From positions 1,222,552 to 1,286,551 of the forward strand of contig CAWIOF010000004.1 of the NCBI GenBank assembly GCA_963837715.1: DNA of 64,000 nt, given 5' to 3'. The position numbers and the translations under genes were made by a program. Shown here one piece after another: positions 4,918 through 60,432 of this stretch. Source of the stretch: an uncultured Actinomycetes bacterium. GTDB taxonomy: Bacteria; Actinomycetota; Acidimicrobiia; IMCC26256; JANYLB01. The notes beneath the pieces are model-generated. The model searched no databases and had not been told where the DNA came from. It saw nothing but the letters and a program-made list of their open reading frames with translations. Position 1 is the first letter of the stretch; the number at the start of each line of letters is the position of its first letter.

Positions 4918-4984
4918 CTGTTCACACCTTCTGGCCAATGTCCGGCGGCTCCGCTGCGCTCACGTGGGCTCACCCGAATCGCGC

Positions 4985-6424
4985 TCATGCGAAGACCCGC
5001 GGTCGCCGTTGGGCCCAGGGGTCGGCGGTCTCCAGTTGGGCGGCGACGCGGAGGAGTAGGTCTTCGCGGCCGTACGCGGCGACGAGGTGCACCCCGATGG
5101 GGAGTCCGGCGGCGTTCTCGTGGAGGGGGAGCGAGATCGCGGGCTGGCCGGTCTGGTTCGCGACCGGGGTGTACGGCGTGAACGAGCCAGACCGGGCGTA
5201 TCCCTGCAGTGGCTCCTCGGGTGTCTGCAGCACGCCGAGCTCGAGCGGCGGTTCACCCAGCGTCGGGGTGAGCAGCAGGTCGAACCCATCGGCCCACCAC
5301 TGCTGCACCCGTCGGGAGAAGGCCTGCATCCTCGTGATCGCGTCGAGGAAGTCGGTGCCGCGCTGTGAACGACCGTGTTCGGCCTGCCACCAGGTGAGCG
5401 GTTCGACGTCGTCGGCGGTGAGGTCGCGGCCGACGGCGGCACCGAAGGCATCGAGGTTCGACGCCGCGAGCGTCGCCCAGATCGGGATGAACGCGGAGAT
5501 GCGGTCGGGCTCGTCGCAGGCCGCGGGATGTGAGACCTCGACGTGGTGGCCGAGCGTCTCGAGCAGCTTCGCGGCGCGTTCCGCAGCCGCCACGCAGTCG
5601 GGATGCACCGGCTCGCCCGTCTCGGGCATGGTCGTCATGATGCCGATCCGCAGTCGGCCCGGATCGGCACCGACCTCGTCGACGAACGGGCGCACGTTCG
5701 ACGGGGCGAGCACGGGGTCTCCGACCTCTGCGCCGGCAGCGACGTCGAGCAGTGCGGCGCAGTCGCGCACGCTCTTCGTGACGGTGAACTGGACCGACAG
5801 GAACCGCGAGAGCTCGCCCAGCGCGGGACCGAGCGAGACCCGGCCCCGTGATGTCTTCAACCCCACGAGGCCGCAACAGCTCGCGGGGATCCGGATCGAC
5901 CCGCCGCCGTCGCTCGCGTGCGCGGCGGGAACCATCCCACTGGCCACGGCGGCCGCTGATCCACCGCTCGACCCACCGGGGGTCCGGGAGACGTCCCAGG
6001 GGTTGTGGGTGGGGCCGTACGAGGTCGGCTCCGTGGTGGGCATGATCCCCAGCTCGGGGCTGCTCGCCTTGCCGAGCACGACGAGGCCGGCGGCGCGGAA
6101 GCGACGGGCGAGGTTGGTGGTGACGGGCGATCGGTGATCGGCGTCCTTCAGTGCCTGCATCCCCTCGTAGGCCGGCTCGCCTTCGAACGCGCAGGCCAGG
6201 TCCTTGAAGAGGAAGGGGACGCCGCGGAACGGGCCGTCGGGGAGGTCGGGTGACGCCGCCTCGGCCCGGGCCCGGTCGAACCGGTCCGTCGTCATGGCCT
6301 TGACGATCGGCTGGAGCCGCTCGATGCGGGCGATGGCGGCGTCGACCAGCTCGAGTGGGCTCGCGGTGCCGTTGCGCACCAGCTCTGCCTGGCCCGTGGC
6401 GTCGAGTGCAGCGAGATCATCCAC
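4985..6424 (-). CDS. amidase (amidase-signature family), paralog 1
   Basis: 479-aa ORF with GGSSGGSAAAVASGMVP and DGGGSIRIPASCCGLVGLK signature blocks. Confidence 0.9.
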   Translation of the reverse strand: MDDLAALDATGQAELVRNGTASPLELVDAAIARIERLQPIVKAMTTDRFDRARAEAASPDLPDGPFRGVPFLFKDLACAFEGEPAYEGMQALKDADHRSPVTTNLARRFRAAGLVVLGKASSPELGIMPTTEPTSYGPTHNPWDVSRTPGGSSGGSAAAVASGMVPAAHASDGGGSIRIPASCCGLVGLKTSRGRVSLGPALGELSRFLSVQFTVTKSVRDCAALLDVAAGAEVGDPVLAPSNVRPFVDEVGADPGRLRIGIMTTMPETGEPVHPDCVAAAERAAKLLETLGHHVEVSHPAACDEPDRISAFIPIWATLAASNLDAFGAAVGRDLTADDVEPLTWWQAEHGRSQRGTDFLDAITRMQAFSRRVQQWWADGFDLLLTPTLGEPPLELGVLQTPEEPLQGYARSGSFTPYTPVANQTGQPAISLPLHENAAGLPIGVHLVAAYGREDLLLRVAAQLETADPWAQRRPRVFA

Positions 6425-6548
6425 TCTGGTGGTTCCCCTCGGGAGGCGGCTCGGCCGACACTATCCCTGGATACGTTCCCGACGTCCGGCTCGCTAGCCT
6501 GCGACGGAATCGTCACTGCAGAGGCATCCGTTCCCACGAGAGGGCACC

Positions 6549-7970
6549 ATGGCACTCCACAAGAAGGCAACGCCGGCGAAGGCACCTCGCAAGCGCACGT
6601 CGTCGAAGACCTCGCCGATCGGCGACGCCGATCCGATCTTCGCCCGCAGTGGCGAGTCGCACGACATCCCCCGTCATGCCCTCCCGGCCGAAGGTATGCG
6701 CCCCGACACGGCGCGCCAGATGATCCACGACGAGCTCATGCTCGACGGCAACGCGCGACTGAACCTCGCCACGTTCGTGAGCACGTGGATGGAGCCCGAC
6801 GCGCGCCTGCTCATGGAAGAGACCTTCGACAAGAACATGATCGACAAGGACGAGTACCCGGCGACCGCCGAGCTCGAGTCTCGGTGCGTCAGCATGCTGA
6901 GCCGCCTCTGGAACTCGCCCGACAAGGAAGAGGCCACGGGCACGTCGACCACCGGCTCGAGCGAGGCCGCGATGCTCGCGGGCATGGCGCTCAAGTGGCG
7001 CTGGAAGGCCAAGCAGGAAGCGGCCGGCAAGTCGACCGCCAAGCCGAACATGGTCATGGGCTCGAACGTGCAGGTGTGCTGGGAGAAGTTCTGCCGGTAC
7101 TGGGAGGTCGAACCCCGCCTCGTGCCGATGGAGGGAGAGCGGTACCACATGACCGCGGAGCCGATGCTGCCCTTCGTCGACGAGAACACCATCGGCGTCA
7201 TCCCGGTGCTCGGCTCGACGTTCGACGGGAGCTACGAGCCCGTGGCCGAGATCTGCGCCGCGCTCGACAAGCTCGAGAAGGACACCGGACTCGACATCCC
7301 GGTGCACGTCGACGGCGCATCGGGCGGCTTCGTCGCCCCCTTCATCGACCCCGACCTCGAGTGGGACTTCCGCCTGCCGCGCGTCCAGTCGATCAACGCG
7401 TCGGGCCACAAGTACGGCCTCGTCTACCCCGGTGTCGGCTGGGTCATCTGGCGCAACCCGGAAGCGCTCCCCGACGAGCTCGTCTTCAACGTGAACTACC
7501 TCGGCGGGAACATGCCGACCTTCGCGTTGAACTTCTCCCGACCCGGGAGCCAGATCGTCGCGCAGTACTACAACTTCATCCGCCTCGGCTTCGACGGCTA
7601 CCGCCGCGTCCAACAGGCCGCGCGCGACATCGCTCTCGATCTCTCGGGTCACATCGCGAAGCTCGACCACTTCGAGCTCATCACCGACGGCAGTGAGCTC
7701 CCGGTGTTCGCGTTCCGGCTCTCCGACAGCGTGAAGAACTACACGGTGTTCCACGTGACCGAGTTGATGCGCGAACGTGGGTGGCTGCTGCCGGCGTACA
7801 CGTTCCCGGAGAACCGCCAGGATCTCGGTGCGATCCGCATCGTCGTGCGCAACGGTTTCACCCGTGACCTCGGCGAGCTGCTGCTCATCGACCTCAAGCG
7901 GGCCGTGACCTACCTCGACCGACTCGACCACCCGCTCCCGCCACTCGCCTTCCAGAGCTTCAGCCACTGA
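6549..7970 (+). CDS. gadB: glutamate decarboxylase (PLP-dependent)
   Basis: 473-aa ORF. LDGNARLNLATFVSTWMEP N-terminal block, SINASGHKYGLVYPGVGW PLP-lysine block, and a length typical of Gad. Confidence 0.9.
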   Translation: MALHKKATPAKAPRKRTSSKTSPIGDADPIFARSGESHDIPRHALPAEGMRPDTARQMIHDELMLDGNARLNLATFVSTWMEPDARLLMEETFDKNMIDKDEYPATAELESRCVSMLSRLWNSPDKEEATGTSTTGSSEAAMLAGMALKWRWKAKQEAAGKSTAKPNMVMGSNVQVCWEKFCRYWEVEPRLVPMEGERYHMTAEPMLPFVDENTIGVIPVLGSTFDGSYEPVAEICAALDKLEKDTGLDIPVHVDGASGGFVAPFIDPDLEWDFRLPRVQSINASGHKYGLVYPGVGWVIWRNPEALPDELVFNVNYLGGNMPTFALNFSRPGSQIVAQYYNFIRLGFDGYRRVQQAARDIALDLSGHIAKLDHFELITDGSELPVFAFRLSDSVKNYTVFHVTELMRERGWLLPAYTFPENRQDLGAIRIVVRNGFTRDLGELLLIDLKRAVTYLDRLDHPLPPLAFQSFSH

Positions 7971-8058
7971 CTCGACGGTCGAATCCGCTGCGGCGGCTCG
8001 ATCGCTCACCCATTTGCGCCCCGCGGCAGCTGTCCGCCGCCTCCGCTTCTTCTCCGGG
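7971..8058. repeat. single inverted copy of the modular intergenic repeat (modules X and Y)
   Basis: 7974-8010 matches the reverse complement of module X plus GCTCACC (35/37). 8032-8058 matches the reverse complement of module Y (24/27). The copy begins directly after the gad TGA (7968-7970). Confidence 0.75.
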
Positions 8059-8076
8059 TTCGCGTGGGAGAGGGAT

Positions 8077-9534
8077 TCAGGCGTGGTGGGGGGGAACTCG
8101 TTCGGCCCAGGGTTGGGCGGTCTCGAGCTGCGCGGCGATGCGGATGAGCAGGTCCTCGCGACCGAAGGCGCCGACGAGTTGCACGCCGACGGGCAGGCCG
8201 TCGGGCGTCCAGTGCATGGGGAGCGAGATAGCGGGCTGACCGCTCACGTTGAACTGCGCGGTGTACGGCACGAAGTCGGCCGAGCGCAGGAAACCACCGA
8301 GCGGGTTGTCGGGGGTGGAGTCGAACGTCCCGTGCTCCACGGGCGGTTCGCCGAGCGTCGGCGTCAGGAGGATGTCGAATCCGTCTCCTCCGTCGGCAGT
8401 GCCCGCCCACCACTGCGCAGCCTCCCGGTTCGCCTGACCGGCCGCGCCGACCGCTTCGATGAGTTGCGCGGCGGTGACCGTCCGGCCCATCTCGGCGAGC
8501 GCCCAGGTGAGGATCTCGACGTCGTCGGCGGTGATCGGCCGCCCGATCTTCTTCGCCCAACTGTCGAGCGCGGCGCCGCAATCGGCCGCCCACACCGCGC
8601 CGAACTGCATGATCAACTCTTCGTTGTCGAAGCCGGCCGGGCTCGACGCCTCGACGTGGTGGCCGAGCGACTCGAGCAACCTCGCGGTTCCCTCCGCAGC
8701 CGCGACACATTCGGGATCGATGGCCGTCGCGCCGATCGGGTTGTGCGTGAGCACGCCGATCTTGAGCCGACCGGGATCAGCGCCGACCTCCTCGACGTAC
8801 GGGCGCGCGGGTGCGGGCGCGTGCGTCGGGTCGCCCGGGAACGGGCCGGAGATCGCGTCGAGCACCGCGGCGGTGTCGCGCACGCTGCGCGAGAGGCAAC
8901 CCTCGACGATGAGGAAGCTGGAGATCTCGTCGTACTCGGGCCCGACCGACGTGCGACCGCGTGTCGGCTTGAGTCCGACGAGCCCACAACAGCTCGCGGG
9001 GATGCGGATCGATCCGCCACCGTCGTTGCCGTGCGCGACCGGCACCATGCCGCTCGCGACCGCGGCGGCGGATCCGCCCGACGACCCACCGCTCGTTCGA
9101 CCGAGCATCCACGGGTTGTGCGTCGGGCCGTACGCAACCGGCTCCGTGGTCGGGACCAGTCCCTGCTCCGGCGTGTTGGTGCGCCCGAGCGGAACGAAGC
9201 CCGCCGCGAGGTACTGCTTCGTGAGGTTGTCGGTGTGGGTCGCCCGGTAGCCGGCCTCCTTCGCGACCCGCATCCCCTCGCCGTACGGCTCACCCTCCTG
9301 CGCGCACATCAGGTCCTTGAACAGCGTGGGTACGCCGCGGAACGGGCCATCAGGCAGATCTCCCGCCGCCTCGGCGCGCGCCTTGTCGAACCGCTCGTGG
9401 ATCACCGCGTTGATGTCGCCGTTCAGCTTCTCGATCCGGTTGATGGCGGCGTCGACCAGTTCGAGGGGGCTGGCCTGGCCGGTGCGGACGAGGTCGGCCT
9501 GGGCGGTGGCATCGAGGAACGCGAGATCGGTCAT
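8077..9534 (-). CDS. amidase (amidase-signature family), paralog 2
   Basis: ATG at 9534 inside ORF 8077..10209 (MTDLAFLDATAQ...). Same signature blocks as paralog 1. The upstream 225 codons of the ORF are Arg/Pro-rich and overlap the next gene. Confidence 0.9.
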   Translation of the reverse strand: MTDLAFLDATAQADLVRTGQASPLELVDAAINRIEKLNGDINAVIHERFDKARAEAAGDLPDGPFRGVPTLFKDLMCAQEGEPYGEGMRVAKEAGYRATHTDNLTKQYLAAGFVPLGRTNTPEQGLVPTTEPVAYGPTHNPWMLGRTSGGSSGGSAAAVASGMVPVAHGNDGGGSIRIPASCCGLVGLKPTRGRTSVGPEYDEISSFLIVEGCLSRSVRDTAAVLDAISGPFPGDPTHAPAPARPYVEEVGADPGRLKIGVLTHNPIGATAIDPECVAAAEGTARLLESLGHHVEASSPAGFDNEELIMQFGAVWAADCGAALDSWAKKIGRPITADDVEILTWALAEMGRTVTAAQLIEAVGAAGQANREAAQWWAGTADGGDGFDILLTPTLGEPPVEHGTFDSTPDNPLGGFLRSADFVPYTAQFNVSGQPAISLPMHWTPDGLPVGVQLVGAFGREDLLIRIAAQLETAQPWAERVPPHHA

Positions 9535-9581
9535 GAACGGAGACGGTATCGGGACCCGGCCCGTCTGTCGTGCGGACGCTC

Positions 9582-10628
9582 CTACCAGCCGCGGAGGTCG
9601 ACCGCCCAGGTCTCGAGGACACGACCGTCGGCGGCGGCGAGGTACATGCGCTCGTGGTACGCGACGGTGGGGTCGACGTGGGCCGGCCAGACCCGGACGT
9701 GGTCGCCGACGCCGCGTCGGTGGGCGCCGTCGTCCGGTCGGAACGTGATGTGCTCGTCGGAGCAGAAGAGCACCTCGGCGTCGTCGATGCTCGGGTTGCC
9801 GTGGTCCATGCCGAGCGCCTTGAGTCCGCAGTCGGCGACGATCCAGCCCCCGTTCGAGCGGTTGGTCGCCACCGAGATCACCGTCGCCTCGACGTGCAGC
9901 GCCCGCCGGAACGGAAGCCCGAGCTTGCCGTAGGCGGTGTCCATCAGCGCGTAGGAGCCGGCCTGGATCTCGGTGCACCAGGTGTTGAGGTCGAACGTTC
10001 CCGTTCCGCCGCCCGACACGAGGTCGCCACCGACGAGCTCGTGGGCGCGCAGCAGCTTGGTCATGCTGCGCTCCGTCTGTTCCGCGCGCCAGGCGCGGTC
10101 GTCGTTGCCGACGACGTGACCCTCGTACCCCATCACCCCGCGTACCTCGAGGTCGCGCGCGCGGGCGGCGTCGGCGATTCGACCGGCATCCTCCGGTCGA
10201 CAGCCGCACCGGGGGAGTCCGACGTCGACGTCGACGACGACTTCCTTGATGCCTGCGTTGGCCGCGGCCGCGATTGTTGCCTCGGAGTCGACGGCGACGG
10301 TGACGCGTGCGTCGAGGTCGGCCATCGCGCGGAGGCGATCGGCGCTCACGGTTTCGTTGGCGAGGAGCAGATCGGCGCCGAGCCCGGCGTTCGCCATGCC
10401 GATGACCTCACGGGTGGTCGCGCAGGTGAAGCCGGTGTGGCCGAGCTCGTGTTGGCGCCGCGCGAGGGCTGTGGTCTTGTGGGCCTTGACGTGCGGACGA
10501 CAAGTCAGCTCGGGGAGTGCGGCGGCCATGGTCGTGAGGTTGTGCTCGAGCGCATCGGCGTCGACGACGAGCGCCGGCGTGGGAAGCGCGGCAACGGTCG
10601 GCGGGGAGCTGCTCGGCGGCGGGTTCAT
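9582..10628 (-). CDS. DSD1-type PLP enzyme (D-serine dehydratase / D-threonine aldolase-like, alanine racemase N-terminal fold)
   Basis: 348-aa ORF. RPHVKAHKT PLP-lysine motif and C-terminal HVDPTV-type metal/substrate region typical of this family. Confidence 0.75.
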   Translation of the reverse strand: MNPPPSSSPPTVAALPTPALVVDADALEHNLTTMAAALPELTCRPHVKAHKTTALARRQHELGHTGFTCATTREVIGMANAGLGADLLLANETVSADRLRAMADLDARVTVAVDSEATIAAAANAGIKEVVVDVDVGLPRCGCRPEDAGRIADAARARDLEVRGVMGYEGHVVGNDDRAWRAEQTERSMTKLLRAHELVGGDLVSGGGTGTFDLNTWCTEIQAGSYALMDTAYGKLGLPFRRALHVEATVISVATNRSNGGWIVADCGLKALGMDHGNPSIDDAEVLFCSDEHITFRPDDGAHRRGVGDHVRVWPAHVDPTVAYHERMYLAAADGRVLETWAVDLRGW

Positions 10629-10651
10629 GGCCGTGGGAGCATGGCACGCAC

Positions 10652-11023
10652 ATGGCCACGCCTGTCGAGGAACGCACGCCCGTCACCGAACCGATCCACA
10701 CCGTGGATCTCCCGGCCGGCCCGCAGCGCGACACGATGATCCCCGCGACCCTCTGGGTCGAGGCACCGCCCGAGCTGCTCGAGTTGGGGGCCGACCTGGG
10801 CCACGATCTCGCGGCCTACATCCGCCGCATCGGCCGGTTCCTGCTCTGGCGCTCGGGTCCCGCGGTGGGTGGCGACTCCCGCTACCTCGCCCTCGCCGCC
10901 GACGATCTCACCGAGCAGTACACCTACCGCCTCTTCTCCGACGGCACCGGTGAAGGATTCGGTCCCGACGCCGTCCCCCAGACCCGCTTCCGCACCTGGA
11001 AAGAATCGCTGCGGGACGGGTAG
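10652..11023 (+). CDS. hypothetical protein
   Basis: 123-aa ORF with coding-like GC3 and no motif I recognise. It lies only 23 nt from the divergent upstream start, so the true start may be the internal ATG at 10736. Confidence 0.4.
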   Translation: MATPVEERTPVTEPIHTVDLPAGPQRDTMIPATLWVEAPPELLELGADLGHDLAAYIRRIGRFLLWRSGPAVGGDSRYLALAADDLTEQYTYRLFSDGTGEGFGPDAVPQTRFRTWKESLRDG

Positions 11024-11153
11024 CGAAATTTCGTCCGAGCGTGCTGTGGGCGCGGTTCTGCTCGAACTAGATGGAAACGATGACGCGATATCGGCAGTTC
11101 AGGCATGCCGCCGGCGGCGCGTACTCCACGAATCGCGGTCCCCGTCCGATGGG

Positions 11154-11633
11154 TCAGCTTGAGTCTGGCGCGCGGTCGAACAACGTCAGCTCGGCCGCAT
11201 CGGGCGCATCGAAGAGTCGAAGCCACCCCTCGAGGTCGGCGCGACGGATCGGGTAGCTGTCCCAGGGCGAATGCGAGTTCCGTGCATCGATTCGTCGCCA
11301 GAGTTCGTCGGCAGGCACATCGATGTAGTGCAGTTCGACGCCGACACCAAGGCCACGAGCCACGGATCGCATCTCGTCACGTTCGATCCGCGCCCAGAGC
11401 CCAAAATCGAGGACGACGCTCAGGCCAAGGCGCAGGATCTCTTGGGCGAGCTGCCACAGTTCGTGTTCCACCCTCTCCTGGGTCGGCGCGTCCCAAGGAG
11501 TGGAGCCAAGGGCCCAAAGCCATTCATCCTTCGTGAGGCGCACGGCGCTCCGGTCCGTGGCGAGCTGCCTCGCGAGCGTGGTCTTGCCCGCCCCGGGCAA
11601 CCCGCAGGTAAGGATCAGTCGGGCTTGGCTCAC
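11154..11633 (-). CDS. P-loop kinase / AAA_33-like ATP-binding protein
   Basis: GTG 11633 inside ORF 11154..11822 gives VSQARLILTCGLPGAGKTTLA (Walker A close to the N-terminus), followed by a DxxxR-type lid region. Confidence 0.7.
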   Translation of the reverse strand: MSQARLILTCGLPGAGKTTLARQLATDRSAVRLTKDEWLWALGSTPWDAPTQERVEHELWQLAQEILRLGLSVVLDFGLWARIERDEMRSVARGLGVGVELHYIDVPADELWRRIDARNSHSPWDSYPIRRADLEGWLRLFDAPDAAELTLFDRAPDSS

Positions 11634-17291: not shown

Positions 17292-17294
17292 CTC

Positions 17295-19828: not shown

Positions 19829-20413
19829 ATGGAACCCATGGGTGGCGGGGAAGTCACGAACAGTGAAGCGCGCGCGATGGTGCGCGAGGTGTCGAGCGTC
19901 TGGTGGATCGTGCTCGTGGTCGGCCTGATCTTCGTCGGCTTCGGCATCGTGATGCTCTTCGACGTCGCGGCGGGAGCGCGGGTCATCTCGACGATCGTCG
20001 GGATCTTCCTGATCTTCGACGGCATCGTCGGACTGGTCACGGCCGGGCGCAACGGTGGTTCGCGGGGTCTCGGGATCGTGCTCGGGATCGTGCTGATCAT
20101 CGGGGGCATCGTCGTCGTGGTCTGGCCGGGAGTCACGTTCCTGGTGATCGCCGTCGTCTGGGGCATCACGATCGTGGTCGGCGGCATCACGAGGATCGTC
20201 GGGTCCGTCACCGTGCGGGGCCACGGCTGGGGGTGGCTGCTCGTGATCGGGATCGCGGAGCTCGCCGTGGGAATCGCCGCGTTGGTGTGGCCGCACATCA
20301 CGGCCTACGTGATCCTGCTGCTGATCGGGATCTACGCGATCGTGGCCGGTCTCATCCAGATCTTCCTGGCCTTCGCGCTCAAGAAGGCACCCGAACGCCT
20401 CGGGATGAGCTAG
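19829..20413 (+). CDS. hdeD: HdeD-family (DUF308) acid-resistance membrane protein
   Basis: Six hydrophobic helices with repeated G-rich LxxDGIxxL / IxGGIxxI patterns typical of HdeD/DUF308. The start may instead be ATG 19877. Confidence 0.7.
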   Translation: MEPMGGGEVTNSEARAMVREVSSVWWIVLVVGLIFVGFGIVMLFDVAAGARVISTIVGIFLIFDGIVGLVTAGRNGGSRGLGIVLGIVLIIGGIVVVVWPGVTFLVIAVVWGITIVVGGITRIVGSVTVRGHGWGWLLVIGIAELAVGIAALVWPHITAYVILLLIGIYAIVAGLIQIFLAFALKKAPERLGMS

Positions 20414-20670
20414 CCCGGCGCAGCGGATTCGAACCGTCAGCACCTCAGCCGGTGAGCGGTCGAGCCGGCGCAGCGGATTCGACCGTCAAGCCGGAGAAGC
20501 AGCGGAGCCGGCGGACTTCCCCGAAGAGCACCTCAGCCGGTGAGCGGTCGAGCCGGCGCAGCGGATTCGACCGTCAAGCCGGAGAAGCAGCGGAGCCGGC
20601 GGACTTCCCCGAAGAGCACCTCAGCCGGTGAGCGGTCGAGCCGGCGCAGCGGATTCGACCGTCAAGCCGG
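20414..20670. repeat. 88-bp tandem minisatellite (27-nt partial + 2 perfect + 54-nt partial copy)
   Basis: Units start at 20441, 20529 and 20617. Copies 1 and 2 are identical 88/88, and copy 3 is identical over 54 nt. Each unit contains hairpin modules X (GGTCGAGCCGGCGCAGCGGATTCGACC) and Y (GCCGGAGAAGCAGCGGAGCCGGC). Confidence 0.95.
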
Positions 20671-41165: not shown

Positions 41166-41936
41166 ATGAGGACCAGAACGCGCCCAACTGGCGGGGTTGG
41201 TGGCCGGCGCGGGGTTGGTGGCCGGGGCGGTGCGCTGCTCGCGGGGGTGGTCGTCGGGGCCGGGGTGATGCACGCGGCACCGGCGCTCACCGCGATCGGA
41301 CCGCTGCGGCGGTACCTCCTCCCGCATCTCGCAGGGGTCGGACGTCGGGGCCACGTCGCGCTCACCTTCGACGACGGACCCGACCCGGCCTCGACTCCGG
41401 CGTTCCTCGAGGCGCTCGACGACCTCGGCTGGCACGCCACCTTCTTCATGCTCGGTGAGATGGTGCGGAAGGCGCCGGGGCTCGCGGCCGAGGTTGCCGC
41501 GGCAGGGCACGAGGTCGCGGTGCACGGTGAATCGCACCGGTCGATGCTCTGGCGAACCCCCTGGTCGGTCGTCGACGATGTCGAGCGCGGCCTCGCGGTG
41601 GTCGCCGATGCCACCGGAGTCGAGCCGCGCCACTTCCGACCCCCCTACGGGATGCTGTCGGGTGGGGCACTGCGAGCGGCGGCCCGATGCGACCTCGACA
41701 CCGTCCTCTGGACCGCGTGGGGTCGCGACTGGCGACCCGAAGCGACGCCGCGGTCGGTCACCGACGACGTCGTGCGCGGCCACCTCGACGGCGGGACGGT
41801 GTTGCTCCACGATTCCGACTGCACCTCGGCGCCGGGCTCGTGGAACTCGGCCGTCGGCGCGCTGCCTGCGCTCGCCGACGAGTTCTCGGCCCGTGGATTG
41901 CAGGTCGGCACCCTCGCGACGCACTTCGCGGCCTGA
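41166..41936 (+). CDS. polysaccharide deacetylase (NodB homology domain)
   Basis: ATG 41166 inside ORF 40836..41936. An N-terminal TM helix, then TFDDGP, HGESH and RPPYG motifs. Confidence 0.85.
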   Translation: MRTRTRPTGGVGGRRGVGGRGGALLAGVVVGAGVMHAAPALTAIGPLRRYLLPHLAGVGRRGHVALTFDDGPDPASTPAFLEALDDLGWHATFFMLGEMVRKAPGLAAEVAAAGHEVAVHGESHRSMLWRTPWSVVDDVERGLAVVADATGVEPRHFRPPYGMLSGGALRAAARCDLDTVLWTAWGRDWRPEATPRSVTDDVVRGHLDGGTVLLHDSDCTSAPGSWNSAVGALPALADEFSARGLQVGTLATHFAA

Positions 41937-41991: not shown

Positions 41992-42889
41992 TCAGCGTTG
42001 CAGCGGGAGGACGGCCGCGGCGGTCTCGCCGAGCTCGTCGGCCCAGTCGTCGGGCGCACCGAACGGGACGAGCACGAACTTGGAGAACCCGACCGCGAGG
42101 AACTCCTCGATGCGCGGCGCGAGCTTCGCGATCCCCTCGACCACGAGCTCGGCGGGATCGACGTCGGGGTTGCGGCTCGGCGAGGAGCTGCAACACGGAG
42201 TCGGGCACCGTGTCGCGCGTGTAGAAGATCATCGTGCCGTAGTGCTCGGGGTCGATCGACCGACCTGCGGCGTCGGCCGCGACTTCGATCGTCCCTCGTC
42301 CGGCTTCGCAGTCGGCGGGGGTCGCGAAGCTCGCGAGCCAGCCGTCGCCGAGGCGACCGACCCGTCGGAGCTCGCTCGGTGCCTTGCCGCCGAGCCACAC
42401 GTCGAGCGGCTGTTGCGTCGGCTTCGGCATCACCCGCAGTGCTTCGTAATGGAACCGCGGGCCGTCGTGATCGACCGAGTCCTCGCTCCAGATGCGCCGG
42501 ATCAATGGCAGCGCTTCGTCGAACCAGGGGGCCCGATCGGCGCGCGCCACGCCGAATGCCTGCTGCTCGGACCCGCTCGCGACCCCGAGCCCGAATGCGG
42601 GGAGCAGCCGACCGCCGGAGAGGACGTCGAGGCTCGCGAGCTCCTTGGCCAGGAGCGCCGGGTTGCGGCCGGGGAGCACCTGCACGCTGGTGCCGAGCTT
42701 GAGCTTTCGGGTCCGGCCCGCGGCGACGGCGAGCCCGATGATCGGATCCGGTGCCGGGCCACTCACCCGTTCGGAGAGCCAGAGCGAGTCGAATCCGTTG
42801 TGTTCGAGCCCGTCGACGAGCGCCGCGAAGCTCTCTGCTTCCCCGACGCTCTGCAGCGCGCCCAACCCGTACCCGACTCGGACCTTCAT
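41992..42889 (-). pseudogene. LLM-class (luciferase-like) F420-dependent oxidoreductase, frame-disrupted (or sequencing error)
   Basis: ATG 42889 (MKVRVGYGLG...). The conserved tail RNPDVDPAELVVEGIAKLAPRIEEFLAVGFSKFVLVPFG is read in the next frame to TGA 41992-41994. There is an extra base near 42175; length is 3n+1. Confidence 0.75.
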
Positions 42890-42980
42890 CCGAGGCGCCC
42901 CTTCTGGTTCGCTCCGTTGCGGCGCCTCGATCGCGCACCGGTTGCCGGCCCGCGCCGCGTGGCCGGCGCCTTCACTGCGC

Positions 42981-44201
42981 TCATCCAAGCTCGCGGAAGT
43001 GCTCGTACTTGCGGAGCTCGCGGCGGGCGATCTGCTGCTTGTGGACCTCGTCGGGACCGTCGACGAGATGCAGGGTGCGGGCGTGGGTGTACATGTCGGC
43101 GAGGGGCCAGTCCTGCGACACACCGGCCCCGCCGAAGAGCTGGATGGCGCGATCGATCACCTCGGTGGCCGTGCGGGCGGCGAGCACCTTGATCGCCGCG
43201 ATCTCGAAGCGAGCGCCCTTGTTGCCGACGGTGTCCATCAACCACGCGGCCTTCATCGTCAGGAGGCGGGTGGTCTCGATCGCGATCCGACTCTCGGCGA
43301 TCTGATCCTGCACGACGCCCTGCTCGGCGAGCGGCTTGCCGAACGGCGTGCGCATCCACGCCCGCATGCCCATCAGCTCGAGCGCCTTCTCGGCGAGACC
43401 GATCGCCCGCATGCAGTGGTGGATTCGACCGGGGCCGAGGCGGGCCTGCGCCATCGCGAAGCCGTTGCCCTCACCGCCGATCACGTTCGTGATCGGGACG
43501 CGCACGTCTTCGAAGAGCGTCTCGCAGTGGCCGCCACCGGCGTCGTGGCCGAACACCGACAAGGTCCGCACCACCTGGGCGCCCGGCGCGTCGAACGGCA
43601 CGATGACCATCGAATGGCGGTGGTACGGGTCGGCGCCGGGATCCGACACACCCATCAGGATCGCGAACTTGCACCGACTCGACGCCGCGCCACTCGTCCA
43701 CCACTTGTGTGCGTTGACCACGTAGTGGTCGCCGTCGCGCTCGATCCGCGACTGGATGTTCGTGGCATCGGAGCTCGCCACCCACGGCTCGGTCATCGCG
43801 AAGCAGGAGCGGATCTCGCCTTCGAGCAGCGGTACGAGCCATTCGTCCTGCTGCTCGGGCGTGCCGAACTCGGCGAGCAGCTCCATGTTGCCGGTGTCGG
43901 GCGCGGCGCAGTTCGTGGCCTCCGACGTGAGGAGGTTGCGGCCCATCAGCTCGCAGAGCGGGGCGTAGTCGACGTTCGACAGCCCGGCGCCGAAGGTGTC
44001 GTTGGGCATGAAGAGGTTCCACAACCCGCGGGCGCGGGCCTCGGTCTTGAGCTCCTCCATCACCGGGGGGTGGAAGTGCGAATCGCCTGATTCGCGCACC
44101 TGTTCGAAGTACACCGACGTGGCCGGTTCGACGGTGCTGTCGATGAAGTCCTGCAGCTCGCCGCGGAGCTCCTCGGCTCGTGGGCTGATCGAGAAGTCCA
44201 T
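42981..44201 (-). CDS. acyl-CoA dehydrogenase (ACAD10/11-like FadE)
   Basis: 406 aa. CFAMTEPWVASSDATN and the C-terminal GGAGVSQDWPLA motifs. Confidence 0.9.
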   Translation of the reverse strand: MDFSISPRAEELRGELQDFIDSTVEPATSVYFEQVRESGDSHFHPPVMEELKTEARARGLWNLFMPNDTFGAGLSNVDYAPLCELMGRNLLTSEATNCAAPDTGNMELLAEFGTPEQQDEWLVPLLEGEIRSCFAMTEPWVASSDATNIQSRIERDGDHYVVNAHKWWTSGAASSRCKFAILMGVSDPGADPYHRHSMVIVPFDAPGAQVVRTLSVFGHDAGGGHCETLFEDVRVPITNVIGGEGNGFAMAQARLGPGRIHHCMRAIGLAEKALELMGMRAWMRTPFGKPLAEQGVVQDQIAESRIAIETTRLLTMKAAWLMDTVGNKGARFEIAAIKVLAARTATEVIDRAIQLFGGAGVSQDWPLADMYTHARTLHLVDGPDEVHKQQIARRELRKYEHFRELG

Positions 44202-55676: not shown

Positions 55677-56689
55677 GAGCCTTGCAGGTCGGGCCCAGGC
55701 TCTGCGTGGTCCCGCTCCGGAAACTCGACCGCAGCGGTCGGGTCGACGGCGAGGCGGACGGAGTCGCCGGGCGCAGGGACGTCGTCGCCCGTCGCGGCGA
55801 CCTCGTATCGGACGCCGTCGGCCCCCGACACGGTGAGGAGGAAGTGGTCACGGCGAAAGGTTCGGGCGACGACGGTGCCCGGAATAGGGCCGTCGGGGTC
55901 GACGCGGAGGCCGTCGGGTCGGGTGAGGATCCGGCGGCCACCGGTCGTCACGGTGTTGACGAAGCCGAGGAACCGCGCGGTGAACTCGGTCCCCGGGTGC
56001 TGCCACACCTGCTCGGGGAGGCCGTCCCGCTCGATGCGCCCGTTCCGCATGATGACCACGCGGTCGGCGACCGCGAAGGCTTCGTCGTGATCGTGGGTCA
56101 CGAACACCGCGGTGAGTCCCAGCTCGACGAAGAGGGTTCGCAGCTCCACCATGAGGCGGTCGCGCAGCTCCCGGTCGAGCGACCCGAGCGGTTCGTCGAG
56201 CATGAGCAGGCGCGGCTCCGGCGCGAGGGCACGCGCGAGCGCGACCCGCTGTTGCTCGCCTCCGGACAGCTCGTGCACCCGGCGGCGTTCGAACCCGGCC
56301 AGACCGACCCGACCCAGTGCCGCAGCCGCCCGCTGCTCGACCTCGGCGCGCGGCCGTCGTTGCATGCGCAGGCCGAAGCCGACGTTGTCGATCACGTTGC
56401 GATGGGGGAAGAGGGCGTGATCCTGGAACATCAGCCCGAACCGTCGTCGGTGGGCGGGAACCTGCGTGAGGTCGTCGTCGGACCAGGTAACGGTGCCCGC
56501 GGCCGAGGGTTCGAGACCGGCGACGACCCGGAGCAGGGTGCTCTTCCCGCTCCCGCTCGGGCCGAGCACGCTCACCACCGACCCCGCGACGACGTCGAGA
56601 TCAACCCCATCGAGCGCGACGACGTCGCCGTACGCCATCGTGAGGCCGCGGGTCCGGAGCCCCGGTGTCGCCACGATCCGCTCGCTCAC
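55673..56689 (-). CDS. ABC transporter ATP-binding protein (thiamine/iron-type importer, with C-terminal TOBE-like extension)
   Basis: Walker A GPSGSGKST, signature LSGGEQQR, Walker B LLMLDEP. The GTG overlaps the permease stop. Confidence 0.9.
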   Translation of the reverse strand: MSERIVATPGLRTRGLTMAYGDVVALDGVDLDVVAGSVVSVLGPSGSGKSTLLRVVAGLEPSAAGTVTWSDDDLTQVPAHRRRFGLMFQDHALFPHRNVIDNVGFGLRMQRRPRAEVEQRAAAALGRVGLAGFERRRVHELSGGEQQRVALARALAPEPRLLMLDEPLGSLDRELRDRLMVELRTLFVELGLTAVFVTHDHDEAFAVADRVVIMRNGRIERDGLPEQVWQHPGTEFTARFLGFVNTVTTGGRRILTRPDGLRVDPDGPIPGTVVARTFRRDHFLLTVSGADGVRYEVAATGDDVPAPGDSVRLAVDPTAAVEFPERDHAEPGPDLQGS

Positions 56690-58371
56690 CGTTCACCGGT
56701 CCCGGGGGCGTGGAACCGTTCGATGAGCAGCACCGCCGTCGCCGTGAGCGCCATGAGGATCACGCTGGCGGCCATCGCGGCCCCGAAGGTGGTCGTGCCG
56801 GGTCGGCCGAGCAGGCGGTAGATCACCACCGGCAGGGTGGGCCGGTCCGGGCGGGCGATGAACGCGGTCGCGCCGAACTCGCCGAGCGAGATCGCGAACG
56901 CGAAGCCCGCCGCGACCGCGACGGCTCGGGCACCGATGCGCAGGTCGACCTCGCGCCACACCCGGGTCGGCGGTGCCCCGAGCACCGCGGCCGCATCGCG
57001 CAACCGGGGGTCGATCGAGCGGAGCACCGGTGTCATCGTGCGGATCACGAACGGTGTGGCCACGAGCGCGTGCGCGATCGGCACCAGCCACCACGACGTC
57101 CGCAGGTCGAGGGGTGGCGCATCGAGCGCGATGAGGAACCCGAACCCGACGGTGACCGCCGAGACGCCCAGCGGCAGGGCGAGCAGCCCGTCGAGCCCGC
57201 GCGCGAACCGGCCGCCATGACGTTCCCGGGAGACGATCACCACGGCCGCGATCCCGCCGATCACCAGCGCGATCACCGTGGCGACGACCGCGTAGCTCAA
57301 CGAGTTCCGGATGGCCTCGGCGGGCGCGACGAGGAACGTGCTCCCCGTGCCCACGTCGCCGAGCGCGCGGTAGAAGCCGAAGCTGGGCCCGCCGGGGGTG
57401 GCGAACGACCGTTGGACGAGCACCGCGATCGGCAGTGCGAGGAGCACCGCCATCAGCGCGAGGTTGCCGACGACGAACGCGGTCGGGCCGACACCGTGGG
57501 GTCGACGACCGGTCGTGGTTGCCGGCCGGAGTCCGAGTGCGACCGCGTGGCGGCCCCGGGCCAGGCCGCCGATCCCGAGCAGGACCACGACGGCGGCGAG
57601 CTGGATGATCGACAGCGCGGCCGCGACGCGGAGATCGAGCAACAGTGCGGTCTGGCGGTAGATCTCCGTCTCGAGGGTGGCGAAGCGCGGCCCACCGAGC
57701 ACGAGGATCACCCCGAAGCTGGTGAACGTGAAGAGGAACACGATCGCGGCCGCGGCCGCGATCGCGGGCCGGAGCGCCGGCAGCGTCACGTGGAGGAACA
57801 CCCGGGTCCGGCTCGCGCCGAGGGTGCGGGCAGCCTCCTCGCGCCGCGGATCGAGGTGCGACCAGAGGCCGCCGACCGTCCGGACCACGACCGCGTAGTT
57901 GAAGAACACGTGGGCCAGGAGGATCGCCCAGACGGTGCCGTCGATCCCCAGGAACGCGAGCGGTCCACCGGGGCCGAGGAGCGCGAGGAACGCCGACCCG
58001 ACGACCACCGTCGGCAGCACGAACGGCACGATGATCGCCGCGTGCAGGAACCGTCGGCCGGGGAAGTCGTACCGGGCGAAGAGGCACGCGCCCGGGAGAC
58101 CGATCGCGAGGGTCAGGGTCGTCGACGCGACGGCCTGCCAGACCGTGAACCACGCGACCCCCCGGATGCCGCCGTCTCCGACGACGTCGCTGACCGCACC
58201 GAGATCCAGCGATCCGTGCGACCACAATCCGCGACCCAGGATCGTCCCGACGGGGTAGAGGAAGAAGATCCCCAGGAACGCGAGCGGGACGAGGGCGAGC
58301 AGGAGCCACCACCCGGCCGAGGCCCGTCGGGTCAGCGGTCGTCGGGTCAGCGGAGGACCGTGTCGGTCCAC
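56686..58371 (-). CDS. ABC importer permease with duplicated transmembrane domain (ThiP-like)
   Basis: Real part of ORF 56686..58989. Two EAA-type loops (EEAARTLGASR and RDAAAVLGAPP). GTG 58371 is the first plausible start and overlaps the binding-protein gene by 25 nt. Confidence 0.85.
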   Translation of the reverse strand: MDRHGPPLTRRPLTRRASAGWWLLLALVPLAFLGIFFLYPVGTILGRGLWSHGSLDLGAVSDVVGDGGIRGVAWFTVWQAVASTTLTLAIGLPGACLFARYDFPGRRFLHAAIIVPFVLPTVVVGSAFLALLGPGGPLAFLGIDGTVWAILLAHVFFNYAVVVRTVGGLWSHLDPRREEAARTLGASRTRVFLHVTLPALRPAIAAAAAIVFLFTFTSFGVILVLGGPRFATLETEIYRQTALLLDLRVAAALSIIQLAAVVVLLGIGGLARGRHAVALGLRPATTTGRRPHGVGPTAFVVGNLALMAVLLALPIAVLVQRSFATPGGPSFGFYRALGDVGTGSTFLVAPAEAIRNSLSYAVVATVIALVIGGIAAVVIVSRERHGGRFARGLDGLLALPLGVSAVTVGFGFLIALDAPPLDLRTSWWLVPIAHALVATPFVIRTMTPVLRSIDPRLRDAAAVLGAPPTRVWREVDLRIGARAVAVAAGFAFAISLGEFGATAFIARPDRPTLPVVIYRLLGRPGTTTFGAAMAASVILMALTATAVLLIERFHAPGTGER

Positions 58372-59387
58372 TGGTCGATCCAGGTGGCGCGGTTGCGTGC
58401 GATGCGGGCCGGCGCGATCTCGAAGGGATCCGTGGGAACGGGCGCGTAGCGGGCCCACGACTCCGGCACCGTCACGCCCTCGCGCACCGGGTACACGTAC
58501 ATCTGGTCGGGAACTCCGGCCTGGAACCGCGCCGACAGCATCCAGTCGACGAGCGCCCGGGCGAGCTTCGGGTGCTCCGCACCGCGCAGCACCCCCGCGA
58601 ACTCGACCTGGCGGAAACAGGTGTCGAGCACCGCGGCCGTCGGGGCTTCGGCCGGCGTCCCCTCGGTCACGCCGGCCGGCGGGCTCGACGCGTACGACAC
58701 GACGAGCGGGAAGGTGCCACCCTGGCCACCGCCTGCGAAGTCGCTGAAGTACGCCTGTTCCCACCCGTCGTCGACCTTGACGCCGTTGTCTCGGAGTTTC
58801 GTCCAGTAGTCGCGCCAATCGTCGCCGTACTTCGCGACGGTGGCGAGGAGGAACGCGAGCCCGGGTGAGCTGCTCGCGGCGTTCTCGACGACGAGCATCC
58901 CTTCGTAGGCCGGCTGCACGAGGTCGTCGAGCGAGGCGGGGGCCGGGATCCCTCGATCGGCGAGGGCGGCGCGGTCGTAGTTGACGCACACGTCGCCGAA
59001 GTCGATCGGGGTCAGCTCGTGGGTCGGGTCGAGCTGGTACTCCGCGGGAACCGAGTCGAGGCCGGCCGGTTCGTACGGCTCGAACACGTTCGCGTCGGTG
59101 GCGCGGGACAGAAAGGTGTTGTCGACCCCGAACATGGCGTCGCCGAGCGGCTCACCCTTGGTGAGGACGACCTGGTTGAGCGCGCTCGCGGCGTCGCCCG
59201 ACTTCAGGATCTTCACGTCGACGTCGTGGGCCCGTTCGAACGCCGCGAGGTCGGACTTCGCGACGGCGAAGGAGTCGTGGGTCACGAGCGTGACCGTGCG
59301 TGCGCTGCTCGAGTCGGAGCTGCTGCACGCGACCAACGCGGTTCCGGCGAGCACCGCCGCGAGGGTGAGGCTGAGGAATCGCTGCAT
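58347..59387 (-). CDS. ABC transporter substrate-binding lipoprotein, thiamine-binding (ThiB/TbpA)-like
   Basis: Lipobox LVACSS. The size and fold pattern match type-II SBPs. The thiamine assignment rests mainly on the upstream TPP riboswitch and the thiN gene. Confidence 0.8.
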   Translation of the reverse strand: MQRFLSLTLAAVLAGTALVACSSSDSSSARTVTLVTHDSFAVAKSDLAAFERAHDVDVKILKSGDAASALNQVVLTKGEPLGDAMFGVDNTFLSRATDANVFEPYEPAGLDSVPAEYQLDPTHELTPIDFGDVCVNYDRAALADRGIPAPASLDDLVQPAYEGMLVVENAASSSPGLAFLLATVAKYGDDWRDYWTKLRDNGVKVDDGWEQAYFSDFAGGGQGGTFPLVVSYASSPPAGVTEGTPAEAPTAAVLDTCFRQVEFAGVLRGAEHPKLARALVDWMLSARFQAGVPDQMYVYPVREGVTVPESWARYAPVPTDPFEIAPARIARNRATWIDQWTDTVLR

Positions 59388-59388
59388 A

Positions 59389-60055
59389 TCAGGGTTGCTC
59401 CGGGATCGCGTCGGGACGCACCACGAGGAGCACGCCGTCGGTCAGGGCGACGCGTGCCGTCGGCGCGTCGAACTCGTTGCTGACTCCCCGGCTCGTTCCG
59501 GGGCGCAGGTCCTCGCCGTGGAGTGCCCACCGCAGACCGTGGGTGGTCACGGCGCGTGCTGGTCCACCGAGCGGCAGCAACGACACGAGCTCGCCTGGCG
59601 TGCCGGTGAACTCGGTCGCATCGCGCACGACCGTCGCGACCGCCGTGCCGGCGCGGGCCTCGATCTCGAGGTCGGCGAACTCCGGGGAGGCGAGGAGCAG
59701 CGCGTTGGCGAGGAAGTGATCGAGCCGCCCACCGCCCACCCCGACGACCACGATCCGTCGCGCGCCCCGGTTCCGTGCGGCGGCGAGCGCGAGTTCGAGA
59801 TCGGTCGCGTCCTTGTCGGACGGGTGGCGCTCCACGGCGCTGCCGGCGGCGACCGCGGCTTCGAGGTCGCGCGGGCTCGACCGAGTCGAGGTCGCCGACG
59901 ACCACGTCGACCACGAGTCCCGCGGCGACCGCGTGTCGGAGACCGGAATCGGCCGCGACGAGGATCGAACCGGTCGGGAGATCAGCGAGGGTCCCGCGGG
60001 CGGGCGCGTCACCACCGGCGAAGATCACCGCCGTCGTGTCGCGTTCGGTGCCCAT
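59389..60055 (-). pseudogene. thiN: thiamine pyrophosphokinase, frame-disrupted (or sequencing error)
   Basis: ATG 60055. VIFAGGD...VAADSG...VVGDLDSV is in ORF 59282..60055. HPSDKDATDLELAL and GVGGGRLDH are in ORF 59389..60015. There is an extra C in the run at 59873-59875; length is 3n+1. Confidence 0.85.
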
Positions 60056-60060
60056 CGGTT

Positions 60061-60148
60061 CCTCCCTGCGCCGGCATGATCCGGATCAGGTTCGAACGGT
60101 CGGTGGCTGCGTGCCACCCTCTCAGCCCGGCGCACCGGACTCCCGTGT
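60061..60148 (-). promoter_or_regulatory. TPP (THI-box) riboswitch
   Basis: The reverse strand reads ACGGGAGUCCGGUGCGCCGGGCUGAGAGGGUGGCACGCAGCCACCGACCGUUCGAACCUGAUCCGGAUCAUGCCGGCGCAGGGAGG. This carries the conserved CUGAGA and GAACCUGAUCCGGAU-AUGCCGGCG-AGGGA cores. Its 3' GGGAGG is the thiN ribosome-binding site, 6 nt before the ATG. Confidence 0.9.
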
Positions 60149-60180
60149 GAACGTGCGTACGAAACCGAGGGTAGCGCGAG

Positions 60181-60432
60181 GCCGGAGAAGCAGCGGAGCC
60201 GGCGGACAGTGGTTGCGGCTGTGGCACGGGTGGGCGGTCGAGCCGGCGGAGCGGATTCGACCGTCAGCCGGAGAGCGGTGTCGGCGGACAGTGGTTGCGG
60301 CGTCAGGGTGGGCGGTCGAGCCGGCGGAGCGGATTCGACCGTCAGGCCGGAGAAGCAGCGGTGCCGGCGGACAGTGGTTGCGGCTGTGGCACGGGTGGGC
60401 GGTCGAGCCGGCGGAGCGGATTCGACCGTCAG
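60181..60432. repeat. variant tandem array (3 units, periods 86 and 79) of the modular intergenic repeat
   Basis: Units start at 60181, 60267 and 60346. Modules Y (GCCGGAGAAGCAGCGGAGCCGGCGGAC) and X (GGTCGAGCCGGCGGAGCGGATTCGACCGTCAG) are shared with 20414-20670. The linker differs (AGTGGTTGCGGCTGTGGCACGGGTGGGC). Confidence 0.9.

Follow-up and report, generated by a model that had tools for sequence, protein, structure and literature searches.

A lineage-specific family of palindromic repeats anchored to stop codons in uncultured Acidimicrobiia

Five repeat loci in a 64-kb window

The DNA analysed here is a 64,000-nt stretch of contig CAWIOF010000004.1 (assembly GCA_963837715.1), hereafter the window, from an uncultured bacterium of the Acidimicrobiia, a widespread and almost uncultured class of actinobacteria. 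Pfam confirms genes for a cytochrome P450, a peptidase M20 and a pyridoxal phosphate (PLP)-dependent decarboxylase in it, and past the stop codon of each lies a repeat unit of ~85 nt. A preliminary description of this DNA had reported a structured, multi-locus repeat at these stop codons, and the three stops are located as it claimed. The core motif GACGGTCGAATCCGCTSCGCCGGCTCGACC (30 nt) is present in seven copies in the window and in none of 100 dinucleotide-preserving shuffles, and six of the seven copies are members of two head-to-tail arrays detected by Tandem Repeats Finder (TRF). Searches with an nhmmer profile and a covariance model, both derived from family members, raise the total to nine units at five loci, with no further match above noise, giving a density of five loci per 64 kb by the covariance model (Table 1). 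The three full loci first named are all real; the copy at 42.9 kb had been missed.

Beyond the window, a genome scan with a 22-base pattern from the conserved arm X of the unit (one genome per species) showed that at least 60 loci carry the repeat, and all the matches listed come from three metagenome-assembled genomes (MAGs) labelled Acidimicrobiia or uncultured Actinomycetes. The window has ~85% nucleotide identity to two of the listed loci of related MAGs and so belongs to a fourth, related genome. Across the ~0.4 Mb of host DNA examined, 102 units are grouped in 73 arrays, comprising 53 single, 12 double, 7 triple and 1 quadruple. A looser pattern applied to metagenome contigs retrieved only 2 more true copies, plus 3 chance matches inside genes, and placed a copy of a diverged subfamily (subfamily B, below) in a related contig as well. 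A pattern scan of viral contigs found no copy of the repeat, and a phage origin was rejected on that ground.

The family also appears to be undescribed. No Rfam family matches it at gathering or E-value thresholds, the best match on an array being a non-significant one to Ms_AS-8 (15.9 bits against a gathering score of 48, E = 0.86), and a full-text literature search by sequence and by topic found no earlier description. The repeat family is new and narrowly distributed, in a few related Acidimicrobiia, and as far as our searches show it is the first interspersed repeat family described for the class.

Table 1. Positions of repeat units and associated features in the window and at related loci (CM, covariance model)
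Feature	Positions	Strand	Score or property
Core motif copy	7974	+	
Core motif copies	20458, 20546, 20634	-	
Core motif copies	60236, 60314, 60401	-	
AtuA, first ~10 codons	4884-4917	-	
AtuA, sole in-frame start (GTG)	4915-4917	-	
Subfamily-B unit, diverged, GGTTCGTTCCGCTGCGCCGCC...GGCGGCTCCGCTGCGCTCAC	4877-4967	+	CM 74.5 bits, E 2e-19; nhmmer E 9e-10
First amidase	4985-6424	-	
First amidase, stop	4985-4987	-	
PLP-decarboxylase stop (TGA)	7968-7970		
Single full unit, X-variable-Y	7969-8059	+	CM 95.7 bits
Second amidase	8077-9534	-	
Second amidase, stop	8077-8079	-	
P450 locus	20399-20668	-	
P450 array (TRF)	20439-20670		period 88, 2.6 copies, 100% identical
P450 array, unit 1	20577-20668	-	CM 87.3 bits
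P450 array, unit 2	20489-20576	-	CM 77.2 bits; 100% identical to unit 1
P450 array, truncated unit 3 then degenerate fourth X	20399-20488	-	29.1 bits, E 4e-6
Truncated unit 3 (X + 15 nt)	20439-20488	-	
Degenerate fourth X	20399-20438	-	
GGTTCGAATCC in degenerate fourth X	20422-20434	-	
DUF308 gene, stop (TAG)	20411-20413	+	
P450 stop	20662-20664	-	TCA on +
G-rich tandem repeats	41191-41277		periods 18 and 32 (TRF)
Luciferase-like gene, start	42887-42889	-	
Second subfamily-B unit	42898-42988	+	nhmmer E 4e-5; CM 62.4 bits, E 7e-16
Acyl-CoA dehydrogenase, stop	42981-42983	-	
TPP riboswitch, RF00059	60046-60156	-	63 bits
M20 locus	60180-60435	-	
M20 array (TRF)	60179-60441		period 78-87, 3.1 copies
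M20 array, unit 3	60180-60270	-	CM 80.4 bits
M20 array, unit 2, shortened (78 nt)	60271-60344	-	37.3 bits over 60272-60333
M20 array, unit 1	60345-60435	-	CM 79 bits
M20 stop	60429-60431	-	TCA on +
gcvT insert, L030	5450-5614	antisense	in-frame
gcvT insert, L053	4797-4874	antisense	in-frame
Subfamily-B copy, L058	3038-3102		
Subfamily-B copy, L013	254-323		
Subfamily-B copy, L039	30-89		
Subfamily-B copy, L061	3849-3911		

Structure of the repeat unit

Alignment of 86 distinct units defines a unit of ~85 nt (78-90 bp) which reads, 5' to 3', a C-Y-T-G-A-Y flank, a conserved arm X of 34 nt (GGTCGAATCCGCTSCGCCGGCTCGAYCGCYCACC), a barely conserved middle of ~22 nt, a conserved arm Y of 24 nt (GTCCGCCGGCTCCGCTNCTTCTCC) and a terminal T-G/A. 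Compensatory changes show that X and Y pair as single-stranded nucleic acid. The GCCGGC hexamer of X covaries with its counterpart in Y, and seven complementary variant pairs occur (X/Y: GCCGGC/GCCGGC, GTCGGC/GCCGAC, GGCGGC/GCCGCC, GCCGAC/GTCGGC, GCCGCC/GGCGGC, GGCGCC/GGCGCC and GTCGCC/GGCGAC). The long-range structure as a whole spans ~14 positions with internal mismatches; 90% of its cells are paired and 7 pairs have changed on both sides, for example 25-76 (CG 61, UA 11, GC 6) and 28-73 (GC 74, CG 6, AU 2). Doubly changed cells number 40 against 6.5 in shuffles, none of 500 shuffles reaching 40, and the covariation is lost in all slid controls. It is this long-range X:Y pairing, and not a local stem within X, that compensatory change supports. 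A local hairpin inside X (GGTCGA/TCGAYC) is 96.7% paired with one-sided changes only, from G-C to G-U, and compensatory change neither supports nor excludes it.

G-U-compatible mismatches are split 20 versus 20 between the sense and antisense strands, and so are uninformative on the strand of action. The pairing of X with Y is real, yet the data do not tell apart which strand folds, or whether it does so as RNA or DNA. Single-sequence folding is unremarkable against the 70% GC background (minimum free energy z-scores of -0.3 to -1.8). No canonical intrinsic terminator site was found by a terminator scan at any of the five window loci, the units have no U tract, and some copies lie within an intact gene; a terminator-hairpin role, one of those suggested in the preliminary description, fails in its canonical intrinsic form. 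C makes up 43% and G 28% of the sense strand (C/G 1.54), which contains a pyrimidine run, CUUCUUCUCC.

Immediately upstream, the 5' flank reads TTGAT in 11 cases, CTGAT in 10 and TCGAT in 4, and the conserved C-Y-T-G-A-T persists at copies with no gene end beside it. The overlapping stop and start UGAUG is found in ~31% of the 5' flanks among units of L001-L060; in such units a sense mini-open reading frame (mini-ORF; MVESAAPAR...) opens and runs for 13 or 28 codons, to a TGA in the middle or just past Y. The window copies have TGAC instead, with no UGAUG and no ATG. A design with stops in all frames was considered and rejected, as conserved stops are confined to a single frame on each strand, in 43% of units for the sense strand and 77% for the antisense. 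Two of the three antisense frames are usually stop-free.

Subfamily B differs at its 5' end, which reads GGTTCGYTCC, and in having GCTGCGCTCAC in place of GCTNCTTCTCC. All six of its copies (two in the window and four elsewhere, Table 1) are antisense and near the start of the next gene.

Position relative to neighbouring genes

Genes were called with a codon-usage gene caller trained on these sequences, not a standard annotator, under which the window is 88% coding, and context was tabulated for the 60 arrays with both neighbours called. These comprise 31 convergent, 12 sense co-directional, 11 antisense co-directional and 6 divergent arrays. Convergent spacers are strongly enriched (31/60 copies, against 40/338 element-free spacers; odds ratio 8, p = 3e-11). 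At the three loci first named the repeat has a constant orientation to the upstream gene, as had been claimed, but this does not hold for the family, in which orientation between co-directional genes is even at 12 sense to 11 antisense (p = 1.0).

Both ends of the unit are anchored to stop codons, which bears out across loci the stop-codon bias proposed for the X end and extends it to the Y end. The X end lies most often exactly 1 nt past the stop of a co-oriented gene (16 cases), and distances of 10-14 nt form a second peak. TGA stands at positions -4 to -2 in ~40% of copies, with or without a gene ending there, and where a co-oriented gene lies upstream the TGA is its stop in 16/19 cases. 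The Y end is most often 0 nt from the stop of the opposite-strand gene, as CTTCTC[CTA] or CTTCTCC[TCA]. At these flush Y ends TAG outnumbers TGA by 12 to 4, although TAG makes up 25% of stops genome-wide, and the stop is therefore made largely from the element's own terminal CCTR.

Orientation does vary with the space available. The residual spacer between co-directional genes has a median of ~106 nt around sense copies versus ~18 nt around antisense ones (Mann-Whitney p = 0.0007; p = 0.0025 with orthologous duplicates removed). In antisense copies the reverse-complemented 5' flank (ATCAAGGAG, AGAAGGGG) is the ribosome-binding site of the next gene, 8-25 nt off. From sense copies the downstream start is 21-660 nt away with no fixed spacing. 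Orientation showed no correlation with GC skew or gene strand, and no replication-strand bias was detected; seven loci on one 2.1-Mb contig read +,-,+,+,-,-,-, which is too few to interpret.

The window loci illustrate these arrangements. At the decarboxylase, the unit begins 6 nt after the stop, which is followed by CTCGAC and then GGTCGAA, a reading equivalent to the 5-nt insert first reported there, and its Y end is 22 nt short of the convergent amidase stop. The L007 orthologous copy has the same rare hexamer pair, GGCGGC/GCCGCC. At the P450 and M20 loci the gene's own stop is the TGA of the 5' flank of unit 1 (CTTGAC and CCTGAC, respectively) and GGTCGAA follows directly. The P450 array continues through an identical second unit and a truncated third into a degenerate fourth X that holds the stop of a convergent DUF308 gene. 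The second unit of the M20 array is shortened by deletions in both the variable region and Y and has mismatched hexamers (GCCGGC/GCCGAC); the third is followed by GGCCTC and then by the conserved leader GCGCTACCCTCG of a thiamine pyrophosphate (TPP) riboswitch. This riboswitch is the only Rfam family at threshold in the window and precedes an operon for a thiamine pyrophosphokinase (TPK), a solute-binding protein and a permease. The window M20 protein has a C-terminus of normal length relative to homologues.

Both subfamily-B units in the window are antisense to both of their neighbours and carry compensated hexamer pairs. The first (GCCGCC/GGCGGC) lies 27 nt after an amidase stop. The second (GGCGCC/GGCGCC) has a Y terminus, GCTGCGC|TCA, flush with the stop of an acyl-CoA dehydrogenase, and a 5' flank, CCCCTTCT, that on the opposite strand is the AGAAGGGG ribosome-binding site of a luciferase-like gene. 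The window also holds short G-rich tandem repeats unrelated to the family (Table 1).

Overlap with coding sequence

Several copies are translated. In gcvT, antisense units of 29 codons (GEGAEPAD...SSRRSGFD), two in L030 and one in L053, split an otherwise complete Pfam GCV_T domain, and the frame is kept in both species. Where the M20 stop has been lost or lies out of frame, as in L033 and its cluster, translation runs on into X and adds LVESAPSARPPT to the protein, which in L033 is 12 residues longer. A CoA-transferase and an MFS transporter likewise have element-encoded tails. All translated-through copies, the gcvT inserts included, are antisense.

The element can also supply a gene start. 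The sole in-frame start of AtuA in the window lies inside the reverse complement of arm X, which also encodes its first ~10 codons; the L007 orthologue of AtuA, which lacks the element, has a later start, three codons ahead of the conserved RIAGGQGFYGD motif. The two amidases of the window are paralogues, each adjoining one repeat copy. In L007 (6780-6850) the first amidase is missing, and its first ~23 nt remain, fused to GGTGAGCGGTTCGC and the AtuA start; this resembles the scar of a deletion that had one end at a remnant of the element.

Conservation and turnover

Seven orthologous pairs of copies show how the parts of the unit evolve. Identity is 95.8% in X, 92.5% in Y and 51.9% in the middle, and in flanking orthologous genes it is 91.6%, 94.4% and 69.9% at codon positions 1, 2 and 3; the identity of X is partly forced by the X search pattern, that of Y is not. 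As the arms are near-unchanged while the middle decays, the arm sequence itself is constrained, and not the pairing alone. Orthologous pairs share 1.3 locus-specific variants against 0.5 per random pair, and their arms differ at 3.1/57 positions against 6.4 in random pairs. The shared locus-specific variants indicate that copies are inherited vertically and are not fully homogenised.

Gain, loss and change in copy number are seen at the M20 site, within the conserved gene order GCS2 - M20 - [array] - TPP riboswitch - TPK. The window (P0001, 100% protein identity) has 3 units there and L033 (same cluster as P0002; M20 protein 87% identical to that of the window) has 2. The site is empty in L075 (P0003, 85%), in L061 (P0005, 79%), which has an unrelated hairpin, and in L062 (P0004, 78%), where 21 nt separate the stop from the riboswitch leader. 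That leader is the 3' boundary of the array in all relatives, a boundary defined by the empty sites of L062 and L075. The L061 hairpin (1930-1990) is imperfect, GTTCTCGTGTCGG...CCGGCGACGCGAGAAC, and lies between M20 and the riboswitch. A more distant M20 orthologue, in L064 (amino-acid identity 68%), has its stop codon spanned by ~3 tandem copies of an unrelated 14-nt sequence, GGAGCGCCCTGACC (4215-4260). Exact look-ups of proteins from the window, aimed at strain variants, returned none on record.

Close relatives of L033 have a single unit truncated within Y (L072-L074; L072 ~2727-2795), and synteny is broken there: different genes lie downstream, with an M50 peptidase nearby and without the TPP riboswitch or TPK. 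The site is a rearrangement breakpoint inside the repeat. Dispersal is seen in the L008 and L019 copies of one contig, which have near-identical variable regions and unrelated flanks.

Copy number is unequal in 3/7 orthologous pairs (e.g. 3 vs 2, 2 vs 1, 1.5 vs 1). The linkers within arrays are particular to each locus: each joins the first bases of the 3' flank to the last bases of the 5' flank across a short microhomology. The M20 linker is GGCCT + GAC, and CCGGCTTGAC, the last 10 nt of the P450 gene, is common to that gene end and its linkers. Because the linkers are locus-specific and join at microhomology, we infer that the arrays form by tandem duplication in place. No fixed-length target-site duplication is consistent among copies; the flanking direct repeats of L001 (12 nt), L023 (CCTGG) and L050 (CTCCCTG) resemble partial neighbouring units. 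In the loci examined we saw no inverted repeat pair flanking an ORF.

Discussion

The initial observation is confirmed and extended by these results, and its interpretation is partly supported. The repeat has dispersed to many gene boundaries in a few related Acidimicrobiia, with filled and empty sites between relatives and expansion and contraction in place to between one and four units; it is anchored to stops at both ends, overlaps coding sequence and has constrained arms. The reading that we favour, and consider fairly probable, is that it is a lineage-specific, non-autonomous, interspersed palindromic repeat of the class that includes REP/BIME, MITE, RPE and MIRU (mycobacterial interspersed repetitive unit) elements. 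Among the roles first suggested, a non-autonomous element with stop-proximal preference and a recombination substrate fit best with the filled and empty sites, the synteny break within a unit and the in-frame gcvT copies.

The preference for stop codons can be explained on this reading through the survival of insertions. In so compact a genome (88% coding, spacers of ~20 nt), insertions would survive almost only just past a stop, chiefly between convergent genes. The termini of the element would themselves give stop codons, TGA at the 5' end and CCTR, read as TAG or TGA on the other strand, at the 3' end. The antisense 5' flank would provide a ribosome-binding site, and two of three antisense frames are usually open. 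Together, built-in stops, ribosome-binding site and open frames would let copies abut genes, replace their termini or sit in-frame within them. We infer that the stop-proximal position reflects survival at gene ends combined with the stops built into the termini.

Several points weigh against this reading. Neither a transposase nor an autonomous partner was seen in the ~0.4 Mb of host DNA examined, and no consistent target-site duplication was found. Orientation is nonrandom by context, sense in long spacers and antisense in tight ones, an asymmetry that an RNA-level effect could explain. An immobile selfish copy should decay, yet the arms are conserved about as well as non-synonymous positions; this conservation, partly forced in X since loci were found with the X pattern, points to some host-level or system-level function. 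The context counts themselves depend on gene calls from the codon-usage caller.

What such a function might be is best considered with the alternative that gives it first place: a host-functional RNA element marking gene ends, in which the C-rich, G-poor sense unit past a stop would serve as terminator or insulator, for instance by loading Rho at a rut-like site or by forming a hairpin that protects the 3' end, antisense copies would be permissive and dispersal would be secondary. Downstream of sense copies the spacers are long (~106 nt), as they are where transcription units end; antisense copies sit in operon-like junctions (~18 nt) and account for every translated-through copy. The C/G ratio of 1.54 with the run CUUCUUCUCC, the arms conserved like non-synonymous sites, and the location of the M20 array directly before a TPP riboswitch, a point where shielding from read-through would be sensible and where L061 has an unrelated hairpin, all fit this proposal, as does the finding that canonical intrinsic terminators are no commoner than chance in the window, so that other terminator types are expected. 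We nevertheless think it unlikely. The U tract is absent, folding is weak, wobble-compatible mismatches fall equally on both strands, and in the half of copies that are convergent the sense strand is seen by one gene only; L062 and L075 have empty orthologous sites without a replacement. Conserved unpaired arm positions, with both orientations in use, are hard to explain by one RNA-binding factor. A more specific mechanism, nested in the reading that we favour, would be a REP/RAYT- or IS200/IS605-type (PATE-like) element, mobilised as single-stranded DNA by an HUH Y1 transposase and inserting 3' of C-Y-T-G-A-T, whose TGA would anchor copies at stops. The 5' flank is conserved also where no gene ends, no fixed-length target-site duplication was found, and the arms keep the complementarity that a structure-recognising single-stranded DNA transposase needs; ISDra2 inserts 3' of TTGAT, a resemblance that is at most a lead. 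Against it, IS200/IS605 elements show a replication-strand bias, whereas orientation here is uncorrelated with GC skew or gene strand and is mixed at the five window loci (+,+,-,+,-). There is one long hairpin and not separate left-end and right-end hairpins, the GTAG of REPs is absent, no Y1 transposase was seen in the host DNA examined, and the locus-specific linkers fit in-place duplication and not repeated insertion. We regard this mechanism as improbable.

Kinship with MIRUs, whose behaviour had been the model in the preliminary description, fares worse. Units of 78-90 bp, variable tandem arrays and overlap with gene ends or starts are indeed shared; the UGAUG flanks (31%) open the mini-ORF described above, and the AtuA start inside a unit recalls MIRU insertion at start codons (PMC12548453). 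A true relative would be an operon-internal unit with a small ORF translationally coupled to the upstream stop and the downstream start. Half of the copies (31/60) are instead convergent, co-directional copies divide 12 to 11 by orientation, the downstream start is 21-660 nt away from sense copies, window copies have TGAC without ATG, and unit lengths are not multiples of three. The host belongs to a different class, the Acidimicrobiia, and no sequence similarity has been established. Context largely refutes this relationship, which we hold to be very improbable. Descent from tRNA 3' ends, as attachment-site scars of integrative elements, is scarcely credible. It was raised by the degenerate fourth X of the P450 array, whose GGTTCGAATCC matches the tRNA T-loop consensus exactly. 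In normal copies the sequence is GGTCGAATCC, which lacks the extra T and is not a T loop, subfamily B has GGTTCGYTCC, and the 73 arrays stand at unrelated gene ends with no integrase context. ARAGORN found no tRNA in the window, and with GGTTCGAATCC in one degenerate copy only, probably by coincidence, a tRNA origin was rejected for practical purposes.

Returning to the interspersed-repeat reading, a protein acting at the DNA level probably recognises the hairpin arms, either a mobilising or a nucleoid protein as for REPs, because either orientation to transcription is used and wobble pairs show no strand preference. The orientation-by-spacer asymmetry suggests a sense-specific polarity, and a polar effect of the sense strand on expression, for example transcription termination, is likely as a secondary property. 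Given the C-rich sense RNA right after the stop, such an effect may be Rho-dependent. A stronger version, in which selection maintains the repeat as a portable gene-end module with a dedicated protein, combining stops on both sides, an antisense ribosome-binding site and start and sense-only transcriptional polarity, seems to us rather unlikely; it would accord with arm conservation at the non-synonymous level, the orientation-by-spacer asymmetry and the flush stop codons. Such a module could, for example, be a Rho loading site exactly where ribosomes leave the mRNA, and if so its orientation would decide between insulation and co-expression of neighbouring genes.

The family should be of moderate interest to specialists in bacterial repeats and to those who annotate or assemble Acidimicrobiia genomes. 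Its arrays are ready-made variable-number markers for strain tracking in metagenomes, and a likely cause of contig breaks and mis-called gene ends, of which the 12-residue M20 extension, the element-derived AtuA start and the 29-residue GcvT inserts are examples. As a natural experiment, it could show whether such repeats are polar gene-end signals in high-GC bacteria without canonical terminators.

Comparison with known bacterial repeats

Small bacterial repeats such as REP, SPRITE, BOX, RU and RPE between them show all of these behaviours (PMC3184786). REP/BIME elements of Enterobacteriaceae, Pseudomonas and Stenotrophomonas are also GC-rich and imperfectly palindromic and occur in many copies; they lie outside genes at 3' ends, favour convergent pairs, stand singly or in clusters, are associated with recombination and have an arm sequence conserved as if recognised by proteins (PMC3184786). 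The unit described here is larger, at ~85 nt including an unconstrained middle of 22 nt (a REP has ~35 nt), its clusters are head-to-tail tandems and not alternating orientations, its 5' flank is C-Y-T-G-A-T with no GTAG, no RAYT was found in the ~0.4 Mb of host DNA examined, and units also occur in-frame inside a gene. The repeat is not a canonical REP, lacking GTAG and being of the wrong size, nor is it an intrinsic terminator.

MIRUs are likewise from Actinomycetota and share with this family units of 40-100 bp, short tandem arrays of variable copy number, imperfect inverted repeats and ends overlapping a neighbouring gene's stop or start codon (PMC3184786, PMC12548453). Copies here are by contrast mostly convergent, in either orientation and without fixed coupling to a downstream start; the host class differs, and no sequence similarity has been demonstrated; Rfam has no MIRU family. 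By context the repeat is not a MIRU, as it lacks the operon-internal, translationally coupled arrangement.

Like MITEs (Correia/NEMIS, ERIC), the family is short, non-autonomous and dispersed, with presence/absence polymorphism and imperfect terminal inverted repeats that fold into a long hairpin, the paired arms X and Y qualifying as such repeats. It differs in its tandem amplification in place, and no consistent target-site duplication was found and no parent insertion sequence seen among the loci examined. RPE, enterobacterial RU and pneumococcal BOX/SPRITE elements are palindromic units of ~100 nt that occur in-frame in genes or extend their 3' or 5' ends, much as the gcvT, M20 and CoA-transferase C-terminal tails and the AtuA start do here. 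The present copies are mostly extragenic, flush with stops and in tandem arrays, unrelated to these elements in sequence and host, and without the U-tract terminator motif of SPRITE. Taken as a whole, the family is a known kind of bacterial repeat, of the REP, MIRU and RPE types, and not a new kind of system.

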